Source: Escherichia coli
Lineage (GTDB): Bacteria > Pseudomonadota > Gammaproteobacteria > Enterobacterales > Enterobacteriaceae
Strand: one strand, 5' to 3'
Length of the DNA: 64,000 nucleotides
NCBI RefSeq assembly: GCF_016903815.1
Contig: NZ_CP069972.1
In this document: piece after piece, positions 248-49,946 of the stretch
Layout: the number at the start of each line of letters is the position of its first letter
How positions within the stretch are numbered: the stretch's first letter is position 1
Translations under genes and position numbers: made by a program
Notes under the pieces: model-generated
What the model saw: the letters and a program-made list of their open reading frames with translations, nothing else
Told to the model about the DNA's origin: nothing
The model's database searches: none

Positions 248-1450
248 ATGATGAAGAAAAATCATATTACCCGCACCATCATTGCATCTGCTGTATTATT
301 TTCCTTTAACGCTGCAGCAGCGACGTCATATTTTGAAGCGCGTAACGATGCAATGGGTGGCACCGGGGTAGCATCTTCCCATTATGGTGTGGCACCTCTG
401 GCAAACCCGGCTTTACTGACAAAGCACAACAGCAATGATGATTTCAGCCTTCTTCTGCCGTCTGTTGGGGCACAAGTTGCTGATCCTGATGATGTATCAA
501 ATAAAGCTGATGATGTTAAAGATGACTGGGATTTGTTTGACAGTGCTGTAGATAACCAGCATGGCGTACAACAGGCAGCGGCAAATCTTAAACATCGTCT
601 GCAGGAATTCCGCAATATCAATGCAGATGCTCAGGTAGGTGTATCAGCTGTAGCAGCCATGGCAAATGACACTCTGCCGTTTGCCCTTATGGTCAAGTCT
701 TACGGAACTGTCAGCGTAAACGGAAAAGTAAACGATGCAGACCTGGATTATCTGGACAAAGTTGCCAATGGAACAATTACCGACGTCGATAAGAATGCCC
801 TGACCTCACGCGCATTCGGGCGTGCAGCTGTAATTACCGACGTCGGAATTTCATTTGCCAAAGAACTGGAAACGGCCGGACAAAAATGGTCTCTTGGCGT
901 CACACCAAAATATCAGCGTGTGGACCTGTTTAACTACAACGTAACGGTTCGTGATTACGACAAAGACGATTTTGACGGTGACAAGTACCACAACACGAAA
1001 AACGGATTCAACGCCGATATTGGTGCTTATACAGACCTGAATGACAACTGGACTGTCGGTCTTGTTGCCCAGAACATCATTCCACGCAGTATTGATACTA
1101 AAGTCGTCAATGGCTTTAAAGAAACCTTCAAAGTTCGTCCACAGGCAACCGCCGGTGTATCCTGGCATAATGACCTGTTTACCACTGCTCTTGACGTTGA
1201 TCTGACTCCTGCCAGTGGCTTCACTTCTGACAGCAAACGTCAGTTTGCAAGTGTTGGTGCTGAATTTAACGCATGGAAATGGGCGCAATTGCGTGCCGGT
1301 TATCGTCAGAACATGGCATCAAACTCCGGAAGCGCCTTCACCGCTGGCGTTGGTATCTCTCCATTTGACGTCGTACATATCGATGTTTCCGGCCTGGTAG
1401 GAACTGACCACGATTACGGTGCAATGGCACAACTTCAGTTCACTTTCTGA
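248..1450 (+). CDS. traF: TraF-like secreted/outer-membrane T4BSS protein (400 aa)
   Basis: AGGA before ATG; N-terminal signal peptide (MMKKNHITRTIIASAVLFSFNAAAA); C-terminus ...AQLQFTF ends in aromatic residue as in OM beta-barrels; symbol by position in IncI1 tra operon. Confidence 0.6.
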   Translation: MMKKNHITRTIIASAVLFSFNAAAATSYFEARNDAMGGTGVASSHYGVAPLANPALLTKHNSNDDFSLLLPSVGAQVADPDDVSNKADDVKDDWDLFDSAVDNQHGVQQAAANLKHRLQEFRNINADAQVGVSAVAAMANDTLPFALMVKSYGTVSVNGKVNDADLDYLDKVANGTITDVDKNALTSRAFGRAAVITDVGISFAKELETAGQKWSLGVTPKYQRVDLFNYNVTVRDYDKDDFDGDKYHNTKNGFNADIGAYTDLNDNWTVGLVAQNIIPRSIDTKVVNGFKETFKVRPQATAGVSWHNDLFTTALDVDLTPASGFTSDSKRQFASVGAEFNAWKWAQLRAGYRQNMASNSGSAFTAGVGISPFDVVHIDVSGLVGTDHDYGAMAQLQFTF

Positions 1451-1509
1451 TTACAGTCCCCGCCCCCGGCACTAAACCCGGGGGTATTTTTATATTCAGT
1501 TTAAATAAC

Positions 1510-2094
1510 ATGATGAAACCACGTTCTTCTTATTCAAAGACAGCATTCATTCTTTTATTTTCTGTTTTCCTGGTAGCTGCAGTGACAAAAGCAAAAAGCT
1601 CGCTTCCCGATATCACCCTGGAACAGGCAAAAGAAATTAATGCTGATAACACCGTTATTTTCCTTTTCCGCCATGGAGAACGTTGCGACCGTTCAGATAT
1701 GCCCTGCTATTCGGATAAGAGCGGAATCACTATTACCGGTACAGAGAAAGCACAGCAGGAAGGTATTAAGTTCGCAACAATCTTCAGTGAATATGATATT
1801 TACTCCAGCAATGCGGTAAGAACCATACAAACTGCAAAATTCTTCTCCGGTAAAGAACCCGTCGTTATGGACAGTTTATCAGACTGCAATAATGATCTTT
1901 ATAAGACGCTTGAATCAATCGCAAGAGAATCTCATAAAAGGAACATAGTAATAATGACACATAATCATTGTTTATCATTTCTGGCCAGAGATAGGCTCGG
2001 CAAGAAATTCAAACCGGCGTACCTTGATGCCCTGATCATGCATTACGATGGTACCCGGCTCATACTTGACGGAAAATACAACAAAGAGGCATAG
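1510..2094 (+). CDS. traG: TraG-like exported protein with histidine-phosphatase-like RHGE motif (194 aa)
   Basis: Signal-peptide-like N-terminus; FLFRHGERCDR motif; symbol by operon position. Confidence 0.5.
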   Translation: MMKPRSSYSKTAFILLFSVFLVAAVTKAKSSLPDITLEQAKEINADNTVIFLFRHGERCDRSDMPCYSDKSGITITGTEKAQQEGIKFATIFSEYDIYSSNAVRTIQTAKFFSGKEPVVMDSLSDCNNDLYKTLESIARESHKRNIVIMTHNHCLSFLARDRLGKKFKPAYLDALIMHYDGTRLILDGKYNKEA

Positions 2095-2487
2095 AGATAT
2101 TTGAATTTACATAAATTCTGATATACTCAGTAAGATACAAGAGTGTACGGGCACATGTGCCTGTCTGAATTGCAGGTTATCCGGACGAGGGCCGGGAACT
2201 GTTTCAGGGACAAGCGCCGGTACGTTCGATTCATAAATCGTCGAGTCATCCATCATGGATCGATTCGGCGCGGAGCGTTAAAGATTACGCTCACATTCAT
2301 ATTATGTCTGACGACCAATCAACCAGCCAGTATCAGGAATAATCACCTTCAGTAAACTATGAGGCTATTTACCTGGCCGCACTGGCATTTATTTCCGGTA
2401 ACGCAAGTATAGCCGGAAACAAACATCATCCTGTCTGTACCGGAGCACCGGTATATCCCATTCTGATTTAACTGCTCAGGAATTATT

Positions 2488-2946
2488 ATGAACCGTATTA
2501 TACCTGCGGGGTGTCTTGCCGCCCTTTTTCTGGCTGGCTGCAACTCCCCTTCTCAGCATACTCCTGTTCCGCGTAACTACGGTGCTGCCTCTGATGTGGC
2601 GGTTACCCGGCACACTCAGTACACATTATGGGACAAAGGTGTGTTTTCCGGCCAACTTCCGGTTTCAACGGGGTCTCATCTTCTGACAGCTAACAGCGAT
2701 CGCCTTTCCTTTGACTGGGAAGGTGATGCGATTGAATTACTGAACGAACTGGCCAGAGTCAGGGGGATGCAGTTTAACTACAATGGTGTCCGCCTGCCGT
2801 TACCAGTCAACCTTCACGTCCGGGATATGACGTTTTCCAATACGTTGAGACTTATTGAAGCCCAGACAGCCTGGAGAGCAACAATCCATCAATATCCGGG
2901 CTTGTTACAGGTCAGCTTCATGCAGCCGGAGAACCGGAAAAAATGA
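2488..2946 (+). CDS. traH: TraH-like lipoprotein (152 aa)
   Basis: Lipobox LFLAGC near N-terminus; stop overlaps next start (ATGA); operon position. Confidence 0.6.
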   Translation: MNRIIPAGCLAALFLAGCNSPSQHTPVPRNYGAASDVAVTRHTQYTLWDKGVFSGQLPVSTGSHLLTANSDRLSFDWEGDAIELLNELARVRGMQFNYNGVRLPLPVNLHVRDMTFSNTLRLIEAQTAWRATIHQYPGLLQVSFMQPENRKK

Positions 2947-3761
2947 AAGCACTCACCTCTCTCCTTTTGCCAGTAATACTGCTTACTGGTTGTTCTTCTT
3001 CCCCTACCATCTCGCCAGGTGGTGTCAATACGCCACCACCTGACATTAATGCATGGCTTAAACCACGAAGTGAAAAGCCGGATAGTCTGTCAGAAACACG
3101 CTGGAAAATGCTGACAGACGCAGGTAAAACGCTTGGATTTCGTGGTGGCAAGGCTCAGCGTTCATGGGAGCTGATTCAGGCGCTCAACGCCCGGGAAAGC
3201 ACACTTAATGCCTTATACGATTTCCGGCCACTGATTAGCCCGGAAGGCTGGCTACCACCGGTTATTGATGAAGCACAGGACGTAGCTCATATCACGCCAG
3301 ATCAAATCCGGACCTCTTCCCGGGTCTGGACCATCATTCGCCCTGAACGCTTTGTCAGCAATCCACCGGGCTGGCGTGACTGGCTTCTCCGGGGGCTTTC
3401 AACAACAGCCACTCCGGGTACAGAAGGCAGCGTCGTTCCAGAAGACAGCGTGCAACGAAAAGTGTGGGAAACCGCATTACGGCAGGGATGGCAGGAAGGA
3501 AGACAAAACGCCGACCTGACGCTTGAAGCCAACCAGAAAACCCTCACCCGTGATTACCGGGGCATGATGCTGTACTCACTTCTCTGGCGTCAGGGCATGA
3601 TCACCCGTCCGGATGTTTCTGATCAAATGCAAACCGTTACAGGTGACGGGAAAAAACTGGTCACTGGAGATCGTGTTCGTCGCCTTAAAAATCATGCGGA
3701 ATTCAATCTTCAGAAATCTCACTGGCGTCCGCTTATAGGCACTGAAGGAGGCTCCCGATGA
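2943..3761 (+). CDS. traI: TraI-like lipoprotein (272 aa), Dot/Icm-type
   Basis: Lipobox ILLTGC; translationally coupled to traH and traJ; operon position. Confidence 0.6.
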   Translation: MKALTSLLLPVILLTGCSSSPTISPGGVNTPPPDINAWLKPRSEKPDSLSETRWKMLTDAGKTLGFRGGKAQRSWELIQALNARESTLNALYDFRPLISPEGWLPPVIDEAQDVAHITPDQIRTSSRVWTIIRPERFVSNPPGWRDWLLRGLSTTATPGTEGSVVPEDSVQRKVWETALRQGWQEGRQNADLTLEANQKTLTRDYRGMMLYSLLWRQGMITRPDVSDQMQTVTGDGKKLVTGDRVRRLKNHAEFNLQKSHWRPLIGTEGGSR

Positions 3762-21235: not shown

Positions 21236-23473
21236 ATGTCGCCATCCCCCTTAATTAAATCCTGTGTGGCCTTTGCCCATACGCAATTCTATTCCGGAGT
21301 TACTGTGAAAATTTTACTTCGCGCACTCTGTGCAGGCCTTGCTATATCCTCACTGCCGGCAATGGCTTCAGTGACCTATCAGGATATTGTGTCTGCCGCA
21401 ACCAATCCTGACGATCTGTCTCGCCAGGCGCTGGTCACGATATTCGGTGATGTAGTCACCAATCCACTGTCAACCAGCGCCCCCACTCTGATCGGAAGCA
21501 TGTTCGGGGCGTTCAACAGTATCATCGCCGTACTTGCCGTTGTCTGGTTTATGTTCATTGGTATCCGTCATGTTGTGCGTTCGGGGCATCAGGGACAGGT
21601 ATTCAGCACCGGACGCGATATCGTCGGCACACTGAGTGTCGTTGCAGGTTTTCTGATGATCGTTCCAACCGGAAATGGCTGGAGTATCGCTCAGCTCATT
21701 ATGTTATGGGGCGCATCGATAATGGGGGTTGGGTCCGCCAATGTGATGGTGCAACTTGCCGCTGATAATATCGCAAATGGTTATTCAATGACTGTACAGC
21801 CAGTTCAGGCATCCACACGAACAGCAGCGCGTGGCATTTTTGAAATGGAACTGTGTAAGTATGCGGTTAACGCAGGACTAAATGATTTTAATCAGACGGT
21901 CAAATCCTCGACTTCACTGATGACAGAATCAGCTAAAACCGCCAGTGGTAATTACACTGTCACGGTATCCAATGGCAGCGGTATCTGTGGTTCAGCCAGC
22001 CTGTCAGTAGAAGGAAACGGAACAACAGATCAATCGACGATTGGAAAATTCTTTAATCCCTTCAGTAAAAACGAATACAGCGGTGTTATCTCAGCACAAC
22101 GTGCAGCCATGGATAATATGATTAGCGACATGGACAACGCTGCCAGTGAGTTTGTGACAACATTTCTGGAAAAAAGAAATTCTGGCAACGGAACATTGCC
22201 GGATATCGAGACACGGATTCAGAGAGCAGCCGATGAGTATGAACGCGCTGTACAAAAATCGCTACCTATTGATAACGGAGAACAATCCAGGAAAGAAGCT
22301 CTCAAGTCTTATCTCACAACCTATGGATGGGTGACGCTTGGCGCGTGGTATCAGACCTTTGCCACTGCTAACCAGCGTCTGGCAGAGCTGGCTGACAGAG
22401 CTCCAGCTGTAACTTCAATGTCATCACTTGGGGAAGTTGGCGATACTGATTTATTTAGTGCTGTTATGGGGGCATACAAGACTCAATTACAGAACTCCAC
22501 ATATACTCCAACGATAGGAACGATAACAACTCAAGATGAAAGTAATGCAGCTAATAGCACAGACCCACAAAGTGTGGTCATGAAAAGTATAGCGCCAACC
22601 ATATTAAAATGGACAAACCAAGCTGCTACTGAATGGTCAGGAACAGGAACAACCAGCAACCAAGTTAACCCATTAATTAAGATGAAAAACATCGGCGATT
22701 ATACATTGGGTACAACAGAAATTCTCTGGACAGGATATACAACTGTCAGAGTTCTCGCGACAATGGGTGATAACTCTATTTTCGGAAAGGCTGTTAATTT
22801 GTTCTCTGGATTACCTAAAGGATTTGTTGCTCTGCTGGATGCTGCAGCTCCCCCAATATATTTCTTGTTGTTCCTGTTGTTTTGTGCGGGTTTTTCCTTA
22901 TCAATTTACCTACCATTTATACCATTCATTTTCTGGATGACAGGCATTGGGAACTGGATAGTAAGCGTATTAATAGGATGCACCGCCGGGCCTCTGTGGG
23001 CAGCAACACATCTAGGAACATCAGAGGACAGAGGAAGTCGAGCAGCTTACGGATATATATACTTAATTGACAGCATGATAAGACCACCTCTCATGGTATT
23101 CGGTTTCTTTTTTGCCTCTGTCGCCATCATTGCCGTCGGCACAATATTAAACTCACTGTTTGGCGCAGCACTAGTTAACGTACAGGTAAAATCATTAACA
23201 GGGATATTCAGCCTTGCCGGGTTCCTGCTAATTTACGCCCGTATGTGTACAACGTCTGTAGCTGCAATATTTGCTTTACAAGCATATCTTCCTGACCATG
23301 TTATCAATTTCTTGGGTGGTAGAGATGGTGTAAATACTCTTGGCAACCTCACCTCATCAGTAAAAGATATTTTTGCAGGTTCTAATAGAAATATTAGACA
23401 CAGCCCTGGAGTTAGAGAGGACAGACTAAAAAATGTCACAAAGGATGATAATAAAGATGGAATAAAAGGATAA
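21236..23473 (+). CDS. traY: TraY, DotA-like polytopic inner-membrane T4BSS protein (745 aa)
   Basis: Many TM helices at both ends with large soluble middle; 745 aa equals recalled R64 TraY length. Confidence 0.7.
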   Translation: MSPSPLIKSCVAFAHTQFYSGVTVKILLRALCAGLAISSLPAMASVTYQDIVSAATNPDDLSRQALVTIFGDVVTNPLSTSAPTLIGSMFGAFNSIIAVLAVVWFMFIGIRHVVRSGHQGQVFSTGRDIVGTLSVVAGFLMIVPTGNGWSIAQLIMLWGASIMGVGSANVMVQLAADNIANGYSMTVQPVQASTRTAARGIFEMELCKYAVNAGLNDFNQTVKSSTSLMTESAKTASGNYTVTVSNGSGICGSASLSVEGNGTTDQSTIGKFFNPFSKNEYSGVISAQRAAMDNMISDMDNAASEFVTTFLEKRNSGNGTLPDIETRIQRAADEYERAVQKSLPIDNGEQSRKEALKSYLTTYGWVTLGAWYQTFATANQRLAELADRAPAVTSMSSLGEVGDTDLFSAVMGAYKTQLQNSTYTPTIGTITTQDESNAANSTDPQSVVMKSIAPTILKWTNQAATEWSGTGTTSNQVNPLIKMKNIGDYTLGTTEILWTGYTTVRVLATMGDNSIFGKAVNLFSGLPKGFVALLDAAAPPIYFLLFLLFCAGFSLSIYLPFIPFIFWMTGIGNWIVSVLIGCTAGPLWAATHLGTSEDRGSRAAYGYIYLIDSMIRPPLMVFGFFFASVAIIAVGTILNSLFGAALVNVQVKSLTGIFSLAGFLLIYARMCTTSVAAIFALQAYLPDHVINFLGGRDGVNTLGNLTSSVKDIFAGSNRNIRHSPGVREDRLKNVTKDDNKDGIKG

Positions 23474-25464: not shown

Positions 25465-25551
25465 GTTAGTTGAAAAGAGATTTCCTCCGGTCAGGGCCAC
25501 CCACTCTGTAACGGAACAGTAAAAAAACCGACCTCACCAGTCGGTTTTTTT
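25465..25551 (+). ncRNA. Candidate ~85-nt small RNA (repeat copy 2 plus terminator)
   Basis: TATTAT -10-like box just upstream; repeat core then strong terminator 25521-25551. Confidence 0.3.
25521..25551. terminator. Bidirectional Rho-independent terminator
   Basis: A7-AACCGAC-loop-GTCGGTT-T7. Confidence 0.65.
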
Positions 25552-25704
25552 ACATCTGTTGTTTCTCAAAATCCGTCCGACATGCCCGTCACACCGGGGA
25601 AACTCATGCTCTGAATCAGAACCAACCATCTCAACTTTGCCGTCTCCTGAAAAAACTGGCACATTCAGTTCGATAACTACCCATAAATACAGAGAGAAAA
25701 TCCG

Positions 25705-26027: not shown

Positions 26028-26180
26028 TTAACGTTTAACTTCGTAGGCTAACGTTGCCACAAGCACTGTGTTTCCCTGCTGGAGCCGGAGTCCGCAAAGC
26101 GAATCCCTCACCATCCAGACAAAACACAGAATCGTCACACAGATGACGATTAACATCATTAAAAACGTTCGCTGTGGCAT
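26028..26180 (-). CDS. pndA: Hok/Gef-family type I toxin, PndA-like (50 aa)
   Basis: Not in ORF track; translation MPQRTFLMMLIVICVTILCFVWMVRDSLCGLRLQQGNTVLVATLAYEVKR with GGAGG RBS; single TM plus conserved Cys typical of Hok family; hairpin 25996-26018 downstream. Confidence 0.8.
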   Translation of the reverse strand: MPQRTFLMMLIVICVTILCFVWMVRDSLCGLRLQQGNTVLVATLAYEVKR

Positions 26181-26212
26181 CATAGCCCCTCCATTGCCTT
26201 ACGGCGGTTATC

Positions 26213-26295
26213 GGGCTACTATAATGTTGTCTAGGCATTACAGTAGAGCCCTTGGTTGATTGATAAAAAAATCTCCAGGGGCTTTCTGCTGTATA
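26213..26295 (+). ncRNA. Candidate Sok/PndB-like antisense RNA region over the toxin leader
   Basis: TATAAT-like box at 26220-26225; lies antisense to the expected mok/pndC start upstream of pndA; exact ends not determined. Confidence 0.35.
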
Positions 26296-26510
26296 CCGTC
26301 CACAAAACGCTTTCGGCATACAGCCTCAAGCGCCCGCAGCTATTCTAACGACTTTCGTATCGGTAACAATCCTTTTAACCAGCCCCACACATCTTTCGGA
26401 CATGGTGAGTACAAAAGGCTGCGCTCTCGAACATTTGACATTGAAAATGATTCAGGTGACAGCCTGAATGTAGCAGGAGTCCCCGTCCTTCTGGCATAGA
26501 AGATGTCAAC

Positions 26511-35280: not shown

Positions 35281-35613
35281 TCAACCTTCCATTAACTGTT
35301 TACGCAATGTATTTGTAAGTTCGGTTATGGCAACAAGCACTTCTGCGTATTCCTTGTCACCGGTTCTTTTTCCCTGAACAAACAGATGCTTCTGCATCCT
35401 TCCCAGTCTCATTAACTCCTTCAGAAAAGCATCATCTGTCCGGGAGTTAATTCGCTTATTCAGTGCTGCATTTCGGATGTAAGCAGATACAGTAAGTCCG
35501 GAATCTTCAGCATTCTTACAGATAGTTTCATCCTCATCCGGTGAGAACCGGACCGCTCTCAGGATCGTCTTTTGCCGTCTTTCACTACCACTTCTTTGAC
35601 GTTTATCACTCAC
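35281..35613 (-). CDS. nikA: NikA, RHH relaxosome accessory protein (110 aa, GTG start)
   Basis: AAGGAG 7 nt upstream of GTG 35613; protein VSDKRQRSGSERRQKTILRAVRFSPDEDE...; track ORF extends 29 codons further without RBS. Confidence 0.85.
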   Translation of the reverse strand: MSDKRQRSGSERRQKTILRAVRFSPDEDETICKNAEDSGLTVSAYIRNAALNKRINSRTDDAFLKELMRLGRMQKHLFVQGKRTGDKEYAEVLVAITELTNTLRKQLMEG

Positions 35614-35619
35614 GGTCAG

Positions 35620-35720
35620 CTCCTTACTGGGGTGTCGGGGCGAAGCCCTGACCAGGAGGCAATTGTATAATCGCGCGTGCGCGGTTATACAATTGCACAT
35701 CCTGTCCCGTTTTTCAGTCC
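35620..35720 (+). other. oriT: oriT: 10-bp inverted repeats flanking a GC core (35661-35694) and IncP-like nick motif ATCCTG|T (predicted nic 35704/35705, + strand)
   Basis: AATTGTATAA-N14-TTATACAATT followed by GCACATCCTGTCCCG directly upstream of nikA. Confidence 0.65.
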
Positions 35721-47406: not shown

Positions 47407-49747
47407 GTGCGACAGGAAGTCGCTTAACGTATTGTTTTACATTGATAAAACCAGCTATCCCATTAGCTGTAGCCTACCGGGACAGGCGTTGCCGGCAACG
47501 GCGGGGTCTGAAGCTCCCGGGACAACGAGAGCCGGGCGTCAGCCCGGGTAATGCCCCGTGAGGGGCTTTACCTTGCTGCAAGCATCATGCGGCAGGAGAG
47601 CAAGGCTGGTCAGAAGGGTTAACACATGTGAACTGTTGATAAACACCGTTATCGGCAACAGGCCAAAGATGCTGACAGGCCTGAACCAAAAGGTACGGGG
47701 TCCGGTTGCTACCTCGCGCACAGGGAGCACATGGGCGCAGAGACCCCCGGTGAAGAGACAGAACCCGCCCTGACCCTCTGTATGTTAAGCGGAACCTGGT
47801 AAACCCGTATCGCTGCCTCACAGGCAGGTGAACCGCAAGGAACACTGTTAGCGGTGCGGGCATAGGAGGACGGAAAAAGCGAATGCCCGGCTGTAATAAC
47901 CGGGATACGGGGCAGGTTCCCCGACGCGAAAGCGGGCAGACTTCCGTCTGGTCTTTAATTGCATGAAAAGCTGTAAAGCAGTCAAAAGGATATCAGCGAG
48001 ATGAATACACACATCAGTGTGTCCACGATACCCCACCCGACAGGCTGGCACACCATAAACTGGAAAGCATGCCATGCCCGGGTGCGAAAGCTACAGTTAC
48101 GGATTGCAAAGGCAACCCGACAGCAACAATGGCGGCAGGTCAGAGAACTACAGCGCATCCTCACCCGCTCATTCTCCGGCAAAGCCGTGGCTGTCAGGCG
48201 TGTAACTGAAAATACCGGTAAAAGGACACCCGGTATTGACGGAAAAATATGGCACACACCGAAGGAGAAATGGGAAGGAATATGCAGCCTGAATCTGTGT
48301 GGTTACAGGCCACAGCCACTACGGCGAATACATATCCCAAAATCAAACGGCAAAACGCGACCGCTGGGCATACCCACAATGAGGGACCGGGCCATGCAGG
48401 CACTGTGGCTGCTGGCTCTGGAACCCGTATCCGAGACCACTGCTGACCATAACAGCTATGGTTTCAGACCAATGCGCAGCACGCATGACGCCATTGAGTC
48501 CATTTTTCTGCGGATGAGCCAGAAAGTATCGCCCAAATGGATACTGGAGGGCGATATTAAAGGGTGCTTCGATAACATCAGCCATGACTGGCTGCTTTCC
48601 CATATTCCGATGGACAGGAGACTGCTTAAAAAATGGTTGAAAGCAGGTTACATGGAAAGAGGCGTGTTTAACCATACGAACAGCGGGACACCGCAGGGAG
48701 GCATCATATCCCCTGTTCTCGCCAACATGGCTCTGGACGGACTGGAGAAGGAACTGATGCAAACGTTCAGGAAAAGTGGTTATCACAGTGCAAAGCACCA
48801 GGTGAATTATGTGAGATATGCTGATGATTTCATCTGTTCAGGCAGCTCCCGTGAATTGCTGGAAAATGAGGTCAGACCACTGATTGCAGCTTTCATGCGC
48901 GAACGAGGGCTGGAACTGTCGGAAGAAAAAACAGCGATCACACATATAGATAAAGGCTTCGACTTTTTAGGGCAGAACGTCAGGAAGTACAACGGTAAAA
49001 TGCTGATTAAACCGTCGAAGAAAAACCTGAAGAACTTCCTCTGTAAAGTCAGAGAAATAATTAAACGCAATCCGACGCTCCCGGCATGGAAACTGATAGG
49101 CCAGCTAAACCCGGTGATCCGGGGATGGGCTACCTATCACCGACACGTCGTGGCGAAAGAAACATTTAATTATGTCGACACCCAAATCTGGCGAGCTATA
49201 TGGCGATGGTGTGTAAGACGGCATCCCCGGAAAGGATTGCGGTGGATCGCCGGACGATACTTCTCCTTTGAAGGCAGGCGCTGGATCTTTAAAGCCATAA
49301 CCCCGGAAGGGAAAATTCTGACACTCTTCCGGGCAATGGAAACACCGATAAAGCGCCATATAAAAATCAAAGGCGAAGCAACACCATACACCCCCGGAAT
49401 GGAAATCTACTTTGAACGTCGTCTGGATCTAATCTGGAAAGGCAAATCAAAGAAGATGAAGACAGTAGTTCAACTCTGGAAGAGGCAGGGGAAACACTGT
49501 CCGCAGTGCGGACAACTCATAACCAACCAGACCGGATGGAATATACATCACCGGATCAGGAAAGTTATGGGCGGCAGTGACGAACTGACCAATCTCGAGT
49601 TGTTACATCCGAACTGCCACCGACAGTTACACAGCAGGGAAGCCGGTGCTCACCGAAAGCACTTATAAAGGCTTGAGCGGAGTGCGGGGAAACTCGCACG
49701 CTCCGTTCTTAGGGGGCGGCGGCGCAGCAATGTGCCGCTGCTACCCG
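47407..49747 (+). mobile_element. Group II intron (boundaries approximate)
   Basis: 5' GTGCG at 47407; ORF in domain IV; domain V-like 34-nt hairpin 49675-49708; domain VI-like stem to ~49747. Confidence 0.8.
48001..49668 (+). CDS. Group II intron-encoded reverse transcriptase/maturase with HNH endonuclease (555 aa)
   Basis: RT motifs incl. YADD; maturase X region; C-terminal HNH (HCPQCG...HHRIRKVMGG...HPNCHRQLH). Confidence 0.9.
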   Translation: MNTHISVSTIPHPTGWHTINWKACHARVRKLQLRIAKATRQQQWRQVRELQRILTRSFSGKAVAVRRVTENTGKRTPGIDGKIWHTPKEKWEGICSLNLCGYRPQPLRRIHIPKSNGKTRPLGIPTMRDRAMQALWLLALEPVSETTADHNSYGFRPMRSTHDAIESIFLRMSQKVSPKWILEGDIKGCFDNISHDWLLSHIPMDRRLLKKWLKAGYMERGVFNHTNSGTPQGGIISPVLANMALDGLEKELMQTFRKSGYHSAKHQVNYVRYADDFICSGSSRELLENEVRPLIAAFMRERGLELSEEKTAITHIDKGFDFLGQNVRKYNGKMLIKPSKKNLKNFLCKVREIIKRNPTLPAWKLIGQLNPVIRGWATYHRHVVAKETFNYVDTQIWRAIWRWCVRRHPRKGLRWIAGRYFSFEGRRWIFKAITPEGKILTLFRAMETPIKRHIKIKGEATPYTPGMEIYFERRLDLIWKGKSKKMKTVVQLWKRQGKHCPQCGQLITNQTGWNIHHRIRKVMGGSDELTNLELLHPNCHRQLHSREAGAHRKHL

Positions 49748-49946
49748 ACCAATAAAAGACAGCCAGAAACGGTGACAGTGTCACGGAATATCACACCTGT
49801 TCCCTGCATACAGCCATACACTACCTTCTGACCGGAAAGCCGGGCCGGCAGCGCCGCAGGCGCTGCACCCCGCGTTTCCGGCAGGCGTCAGCCTGCCAGG
49901 GGTTTTCGCGCGGGCTGACAGGCGGCCTCCACCGCCTGCCCCTGTA

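Follow-up and report, generated by a model that had tools for sequence, protein, structure and literature searches.

RfaH, a NusG paralog, acts through ops, a short non-template motif in the promoter-proximal leader at the head of very long operons, conjugation operons included. T6 of ops is the flipped-out base that RfaH reads, and the ops hairpin is closed by a GCG...AGC clamp; d(GCGNAGC) and d(GCGNNAGC) are unusually stable DNA mini-hairpins. In Bacillus, the NusG paralog LoaP gives read-through of long operons that begin with a structured, terminator-containing 5' leader, and it needs a hairpin in the leader RNA. The ops sequence, GGCGGTAGCGTG, is found in the leaders of long operons such as rfa, hly and the F tra operon (PMC11880322), and on IncX3 plasmids PrfaH (ActX) binds an ops-like non-template hairpin at -42 to -25 of its own 5' untranslated region (PMC11880322). 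IncI1 plasmids, which are among the main carriers of extended-spectrum beta-lactamase and AmpC resistance genes in Escherichia coli and Salmonella, encode a NusG-like regulator of their own, TraB. In this paper we analyze a stretch of 64,000 nucleotides of E. coli plasmid DNA (contig NZ_CP069972.1 of assembly GCF_016903815.1; hereafter the window) and describe, in the gap between the transfer genes traG and traH at 2095-2487, a structured element that is a paralog of elements upstream of traB and traA. From the sequence we put at roughly 55% the probability that this gap serves the traH operon (traH to trbC) as its promoter and leader, with an ops-like loading site for TraB.

The window is part of an IncI1 resistance plasmid, and its traE-to-traJ region, gap included, is 100% identical to pMB7603_1 (NZ_CP103590.1); in that record, position p of the window becomes 53008-p, with the minus strand being the one that matches. 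The element in the gap, which we call copy C, spans ~149 nt (2134-2282, plus strand). A blastn-short search of the gap against the whole plasmid identified two further copies in the same orientation, both on the tra strand: copy A, upstream of traA at ~71,888 to 71,735 of the pMB7603_1 record, which ends in a canonical terminator and in pESBL is followed, 46 bp further downstream, by the Hft region, and copy B, directly against the GTG start of traB at ~70,823 to 70,678. The three copies are colinear over ~145 nt, from TAC(A/T)AGAG through GCGCGGAGCGTT. This invariant 12-mer (2268-2279, plus strand; core heptamer GCGGAGC at 2270-2276) is present once in the window and exactly three times in the 91-kb plasmid, on the tra strand only, upstream of traA, traB and traH. 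All three copies, as read from the sequence, lie in tra orientation in non-coding DNA ahead of these genes. The motif is not merely the traB ribosome-binding site, because copies A and C keep it without a following start codon.

The core of the motif, GCGG-AGCGT, is the ops core GCGGTAGCGT (GCGG[T]AGCGT) minus one nucleotide, with agreement at 9 of 10 positions when the gap is introduced, and putting the T back into the IncI1 core gives GCGGTAGC. The motif retains the closing GCG...AGC clamp of ops, but its loop would have one nucleotide rather than two and would lack the T6 position. The factor concerned also differs, being plasmid-encoded TraB and not chromosomal RfaH, and the IncI1 motif is set in a ~150-nt conserved RNA fold with three paralogous copies. 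We class the motif, by its letters, as ops-like and not as the ops of RfaH. LoaP belongs to another phylum and another paralog subfamily, and RNA binding by TraB, drawn from that analogy, would be pure conjecture. The likeness to PrfaH of IncX3 extends to the setting: there too conjugation requires an RfaH-like activator that the plasmid itself encodes and that is co-transcribed with the type IV secretion genes, and its hairpin, with a stem of 3 bp, is just upstream of its own start codon, the position that copy B occupies relative to traB. However, the IncX3 motif, TCGGGGTCATCCGAG, is unlike that of IncI1, one site is reported there as against three IncI1 copies (the gap copy being ~20 kb downstream at the head of a second operon), and no conserved RNA fold is reported in PMC11880322.

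The NusG-family paralog that would read this site, TraB, is encoded on the same plasmid outside the window. It is annotated as NusG-family by NCBI and scores 21 bits against Pfam NusG, just under the 22.2-bit cut-off. Residues 10-109 match chain 9ik0, deposited as 'Transcription antitermination protein RfaH' (phmmer, E = 6e-12), which is the only match to a solved structure and which we take to be the crystal structure of PrfaH. From R64 traB and traC mutants, TraB is reported to be needed for surface transfer and for the pilus genes (Kim et al. 1993, cited in PMC10286972). The requirement of TraB and TraC for transfer has been known since 1993 (Kim et al. 1993, cited in PMC5801416), and both conjugation and the transcription of pil depend on TraB (PMC5013300; PMC4288162). 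In the literature searched, TraB is named only as a required NusG-like regulator and no DNA or RNA target of it is described. The 12-mer occurs there only as part of a primer used to clone the nusG/traB gene of IncI1; neither it nor the element is described in that literature or in Rfam 15, the search not having surfaced the R64 transfer papers of 1993, 2000 and 2010.

The association of the motif with traB holds across divergent plasmids. A scan of genome contigs for TraB relatives returned only 10 loci, so the family alignment is small, with 16 distinct sequences. Plasmids with a TraB of 48-65% identity, some of them without traA, have GGATC(G/A)-N4-6-GCG(C/T)G(G/A)AGC(G/C)TT ahead of the traB start and, further upstream, TTCG and ACAAGA(G/A) blocks. 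GCG(G/A)AGC, the invariant core across relatives, is located 5-12 nt upstream of traB in loci L013-L017, L020 and L022-L024. A covariance model (R1) built from five sequences scores 164.6 bits at copy C, with no other match in the window even with filters off, and matches upstream of traB in those same loci at 18.7-114 bits; sequences that took no part in building the model score 36-62 bits, and the weakest match is that of L017 (18.7 bits, E = 0.0034). The motif is thus found in the leader of traB itself and co-varies with the presence of TraB. In L025, whose TraB is 43% identical and leaves query residues 1-9 unmatched, the stretch examined contains neither the motif nor a model match. In L013 (1866-2507), the traB homolog of p17-07187_1, as annotated by NCBI, is extended at its N terminus by 45 codons across the leader element; this start is probably mis-called, because the tblastn match and the conserved motif place it at 2001.

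The element has a conserved fold. Hairpin P1 (2141-2227, plus strand) is long and interrupted, with an AGAG...UUCG closing stem and an apical hairpin at 2180-2196, and hairpin P2 (2239-2270, plus strand) has the conserved GGAUCG-N-UUCGGCG block as its 3' strand. All three IncI1 paralogs have this same architecture in their minimum-energy folds, and RNAalifold gives it too. On five sequences, both-sided changes occur in 19 of 45 pairs, compared with 8.2 ± 2.1 in shuffled and 1-4 in slid controls. In the 16 distinct sequences, whose alignment was fitted to the covariance model and so favours structure, 88% of cells pair and double changes occur in 28 of 45 pairs (16.8 ± 2.2 shuffled, 5-14 slid); P1 has both-sided changes in 14 of 21 pairs and P2 in 8 of 14. 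Among orthologs of copy C all three substitutions in the P1 stem leave the bases paired (U-G to U-A, and G-C to G-U to A-U). The plus strand folds at -53.9 kcal/mol and its complement at -40.9 kcal/mol, and single-sequence folding z-scores are moderate, -2.5 to -3.0. The covariation supports a fold of the element's own, which would make it an undescribed RNA family. A long-range helix between GUGCCUGUCUGAAU and the motif region, seen in a first RNAalifold run on a loose 9-sequence alignment, was dropped for the local P1 and P2 because these recur in the single-sequence fold of every paralog and in the tighter alignment; an alternative, antiterminator-like pairing is conceivable.

Directly overlapping the motif is a third hairpin, P3 (2273-2292, plus strand), of the form GAGCGU-UAAAGAUU-ACGCUC, with a U-poor tail. 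It is invariant in all gap variants, and its equivalent is the canonical terminator of copy A and was flagged as terminator-like in the L002 ortholog. P3 is a candidate attenuator or terminator remnant. For the element, Rfam gave no family at the gathering threshold and no JUMPstart or other match at E up to 10, and for region 1400-3200, again at E up to 10, it gave chance-level matches only (guanidine-III, SBWMV pseudoknot, BsrC). A guanidine-III riboswitch at 2158-2218 was rejected: the score is 15.3 bits against a gathering threshold of 36 (E = 3.2), the helix order differs, and the match comes from two strings of the P1 apex, CCGGACGAGG and GACAAG.

Six gap variants were aligned, and the deepest division is between the type of the window and that of L002 and L008. 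Between these deep lineages only 7-8 of 160 positions differ at 2134-2293, with no indels (95-96% identity), whereas 38-39 of 177 positions differ at 2294-2475, with 9 further gap columns (78% identity); the contrast between the element and the neighbouring non-coding DNA is significant (Fisher p ~4e-6). In the same comparison the decaying 3' end of traG is 86% identical and a traH 5' fragment 78-80%. The less conserved 2294-2475 (plus strand) would form the variable 3' half of the leader, with several indels between lineages and hairpins at 2388-2423 and 2437-2453. The gap is present in ~1,390 plasmids, and its DNA is kept in three variants (L002, L008 and L010) in which traG is reduced to remnants. 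Nothing is annotated under it in 1,395 PLSDB plasmids or in 812 RefSeq E. coli records.

A candidate sigma-70 extended -10 promoter (2101-2127, plus strand), read from the sequence and with a predicted start near 2134, precedes the conserved 5' end of the element by seven nucleotides. It consists of a -35 TTGAAT (2101-2106), a 15-nt spacer, TG at 2119-2120 and a -10 TATACT (2122-2127), and is invariant in all gap variants. TGaTATACT at 2119-2127 has the TGn followed by a -10 near TATAAT that characterizes extended -10 promoters, in which the -35 is optional. The default promoter scan, which allows spacers of 16-18 nt only, found nothing in the gap. We infer promoter activity here from the position of the site. 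A near-perfect palindrome, ATATTTGAATTTA / TAAATTCTGATAT (2097-2124; 13-nt arms 2 nt apart, an inverted repeat 85% complementary), overlaps the extended -10 promoter, the two together taking up 2097-2127. It is kept with 1-2 changes in all six gap variants and is a candidate operator. By eye it matches neither the FNR nor the CRP consensus. A 12-nt exact repeat, TAAATTCTGATA, is found at 2112-2123, in the right arm of the palindrome, and at 223-234, just upstream of the traF start; it could be due to chance (E = 1.8) or could be a shared operator half-site.

The gap was originally predicted to be an unexplained hole inside one tightly coupled tra operon. Its size of 393 bp is borne out, with traG ending (stop codon included) at 2094 and the traH ATG at 2488, and it is the largest intergenic distance from traE to excA in NZ_CP103590.1, where the genes otherwise overlap or are separated by no more than ~96 bp. 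The idea of an interruption is not supported. Transposon sequencing of pESBL found traE, traF and traG to be dispensable and traH to trbC to be required for transfer (PMC4288162), and a terminator-like hairpin with a T-run (1462-1495, plus strand; terminator scan) stands directly 3' of traF, separating traE-traF from what follows; several relatives without traG, moreover, retain the gap DNA. Because traE, traF and traG are dispensable and this hairpin follows traF, the gap is the head of a transfer-essential block and not a hole within one operon, and traH is the first gene of the block required for transfer. The terminator-like site after traF was also flagged in the L002 ortholog; it was flagged only in lineages with copy C and in none of the relatives without the gap element, which is consistent with transcription as a unit apart, dependent on a promoter and a loading site of its own. 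The same prediction had proposed a search for promoters and small RNAs, and the gap does contain a promoter-like site and a structured RNA element. Nor is it equally long and featureless in all relatives: the corresponding traF-to-traH spacers measure 358 bp in IncK2/Z, 103 bp in IncB/O and 132 bp in a Citrobacter plasmid, and have no homology to the gap except in the last ~27 nt before traH, so that they were of no use as orthologs.

If the gap works as the leader of the traH operon, transcription might proceed as follows. RNA polymerase would start near 2134 at the extended -10 promoter (2119-2127), which an operator-like palindrome overlaps, or alternatively would enter by read-through from traG. 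It would then transcribe the structured leader of ~150 nt (2134-2282), up to GCGCGGAGCGTT at 2268-2279. In the paused polymerase a GCGNAGC mini-hairpin of the non-template strand, for which the candidate TraB-bound sequence is TTCGGCGCGGAGCGTTAAA, may recruit TraB, as ops recruits RfaH and the ops-like hairpin of IncX3 recruits PrfaH. The TraB-modified polymerase would pass P3 and later termination signals across traH to trbC. Of these steps, promoter activity, pausing at the motif, TraB binding and antitermination are the ones that we infer. Such a mechanism would explain why TraB is needed for surface transfer and pilus genes. It would also explain why Hft mutants, in which expression of traA and traBC is raised, show raised traU and nikB as well (PMC4288162; PMC5801416).

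A wider proposal, to which we give slightly less than even odds, is that IncI1 and related plasmids of the I complex use an undescribed, structured ~150-nt leader ending in GCGNAGC, that is, ops minus one loop nucleotide, as the loading site of TraB. IncI1 would have triplicated this leader at traA, traB and traH, the gap copy would place the type IV secretion genes under TraB, and the difference of one nucleotide from ops would be a simple specificity code separating the regulons of host RfaH and plasmid TraB. A defined target of TraB would supply a mechanistic link from the traABC regulators, including the Hft "superspreader" region, to secretion genes ~20 kb away, together with a site that can be tested, also as a means of blocking plasmid spread. 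It would further offer a natural comparison with RfaH/ops and PrfaH on how NusG paralogs discriminate between sites, and would bring a new family of structured RNA, supported by covariation.

Several observations weigh against a TraB loading site in the traH leader. No match to the canonical ops consensus GGCGGTAGnnTG is present in the gap within two mismatches, a 1-nt gap being needed, and a search with the ops pattern GGCGGTAGNNTG, at up to two mismatches, gave no match there and showed no general enrichment. The predicted CGC-GGA-GCG DNA mini-hairpin has an energy of -1.9 to -2.1 kcal/mol, which is compatible with such a hairpin but no better than shuffled sequences, and the L016-type variant of the motif is predicted by nearest-neighbour rules to be unfolded. 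TGNTATAMT occurs twice in the 64-kb window where 1.86 occurrences are expected, which is chance level. P3 of the window was not flagged as a terminator, its tail being too poor in U for an intrinsic one. In copy B and all relatives the motif contains GGAG, the Shine-Dalgarno sequence of traB, so part of its conservation at traB may be translational. The variants are recombination mosaics, with a switch of lineage at ~2293 in L009 and at ~2233 in L010, and the conserved block could partly reflect recent exchange and history rather than selection. The covariance model finds no copy upstream of traH in IncK2/Z, IncB/O or Citrobacter plasmids. Lastly, the strong covariation points to a function of the RNA fold, whereas recruitment of the RfaH type, through DNA, needs no such fold.

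This last point leads to the main rival, a function at the RNA level without TraB, which we consider unlikely although it is ahead of the other three alternatives. The element would then be a cis-acting attenuator or sensor with alternative P2/P3 folds, or a small RNA of ~160 nt that ends at P3 and is bound by Hfq or a ProQ/FinO-family protein. The compensatory changes in P1 and P2 speak for it, as do the G-U pairs that favour the plus-strand fold; the canonical terminator that ends copy A would release a discrete small RNA, a ProQ/FinO-family protein is encoded on the plasmid, and unpublished hints of a role for Hfq and a small RNA in traA and traBC expression are mentioned by Poidevin et al. 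(PMC5801416). Yet the best-conserved part is the single-stranded GCGNAGC motif and not a helix, the folding z-scores are only moderate, no Rfam family matches, and no ligand, target or partner can be named; this explanation would also make a coincidence of both the likeness to ops and the strict pairing with a NusG paralog. The element could also be a non-functional relic, part of the traB leader that was duplicated, was brought in by the traG insertion or by recombination, and is now passively retained. The missing copy upstream of traH in IncK2/Z, IncB/O and Citrobacter is in keeping with this, and so are the rearranged surroundings (traG remnants, a duplicated traH 5' end, an extra small open reading frame) and the capacity of mosaic recombination to yield a locally young block. 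We think it quite improbable nonetheless: the element is 95-96% identical without indels next to DNA at 78% with 9 gap columns, was kept after deletion of traG in three variants, is carried by ~1,390 plasmids, and has an invariant 12-mer and P3 hairpin, while every stem substitution preserves pairing, including one double change from G-C to A-U.

Marginally less probable again is that the 12-mer or the palindrome is a duplex-DNA site at which a plasmid factor (TraC, TraA or another) activates or represses initiation at traA, traB and traH. TraA, which has a helix-turn-helix of the LuxR / sigma-70 region 4 type, does activate traB via sequences upstream of it (PMC5801416), TraC is always encoded beside TraB and has no known fold, and the gap promoter is overlapped by the palindrome. 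Against such a site, the 12-mer is conserved in plasmids without traA, is non-palindromic as duplex DNA, and is located over 130 nt 3' of the predicted start and right beside the start codon of traB, where an initiation factor would hardly be expected to bind, and no second copy of the gap palindrome precedes copy A or copy B. The least probable explanation, by a wide margin in our estimation, is a small protein, encoded by the 70-residue open reading frame at 2143-2355 or by shorter ones starting at 2304 and 2359. These frames exist, and the NCBI pipeline extended the L013 traB coding sequence through the leader in the same frame. The original prediction found no convincing reading frame here, and we concur, since the frames are not common to the paralogs, are shifted by indels among orthologs and have no ribosome-binding site. 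Of the two frames that it listed, both exist, 2143-2355 on the plus strand and 2349-2543 on the minus strand, the latter orientation having gone unstated. The conserved CCTGTC block is in one frame in copy B and in another in copy C, and the translations of L013 and the window diverge completely after 7 residues. Orthologs have indels of 2 and 4 bp inside the 70-residue frame (2, 3, 4 and 6 bp overall), and the frame at 2359 has mostly non-synonymous changes and loses its stop codon. Frames 2143-2355, 2304-2342 and 2359-2412 were therefore rejected as coding.

The genes on either side of the gap are as follows. traG (1510-2094, plus strand) encodes an Ais/PmrG-like histidine phosphatase (Pfam His_Phos_1, E = 1.4e-8). 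It is missing from the IncK2/Z, IncB/O and Citrobacter relatives, and only remnants of it are present in L002, L008 and L010; in these (at 2396-2452 in L002) traG is cut to an internal piece of 58 bp and its last ~45 bp, and the downstream gap is intact. On the other side, the traH ribosome-binding region and gene extend over 2476-2946 (plus strand), with AGGA at 2478-2481 and an open reading frame at 2488-2946 for a lipoprotein of the DotD family (Pfam DotD). In IncI1-like plasmids such as the pS1-9 type and p1002W03_1, a duplicated, decaying traH 5' fragment and a hypothetical reading frame of 87 residues are located between the gap and traH. These extra features were found at 2866-3245 in L002, ~2975-3355 in L008, 3240-3599 in L009 and 2727-2960 in L003. 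IncK2/Z plasmids have a shorter homolog of the 87-residue frame, with a 24-nt remnant of traH coding sequence ahead of it.

Other RNA features were recorded elsewhere on the plasmid. The Hft region of pESBL, just upstream of traA, matches the Rfam C4 antisense RNA (RF01695) at 77.5 bits against a gathering threshold of 45 (E = 5e-15); the c4 a1/b1 targets (32.9 bits) and isrK (31.6 bits) match it below threshold. The matches are at L007 21455-21542 (minus strand), 21629-21681 and 21583-21668, equivalent to 71,455-71,681 of pMB7603_1 and ~35,424-35,650 of pESBL, outside the window. An antisense module of the phage-P1 c4/IsrK type before traA could, judging by these matches, explain the derepression of traA by transposon insertions at the two ends of Hft; PMC4288162 and PMC5801416 contain no mention of such a module. 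Within the window, Rfam group II intron domains were identified on the plus strand in the leading region, D1-D4 at 47451-47600 (121.8 bits) and D5-D6 at 49673-49749 (60.1 bits), ~2.3 kb apart; the PLSDB gene table of the matching plasmid, which is incomplete, lists no intron or reverse transcriptase. Two known small-RNA antitoxins scored above the Rfam gathering thresholds, at 26178-26335 (minus strand) and 25466-25553 (plus strand), and are the sok of a pnd/hok-type system and the AgrB of a dinQ-like toxin.

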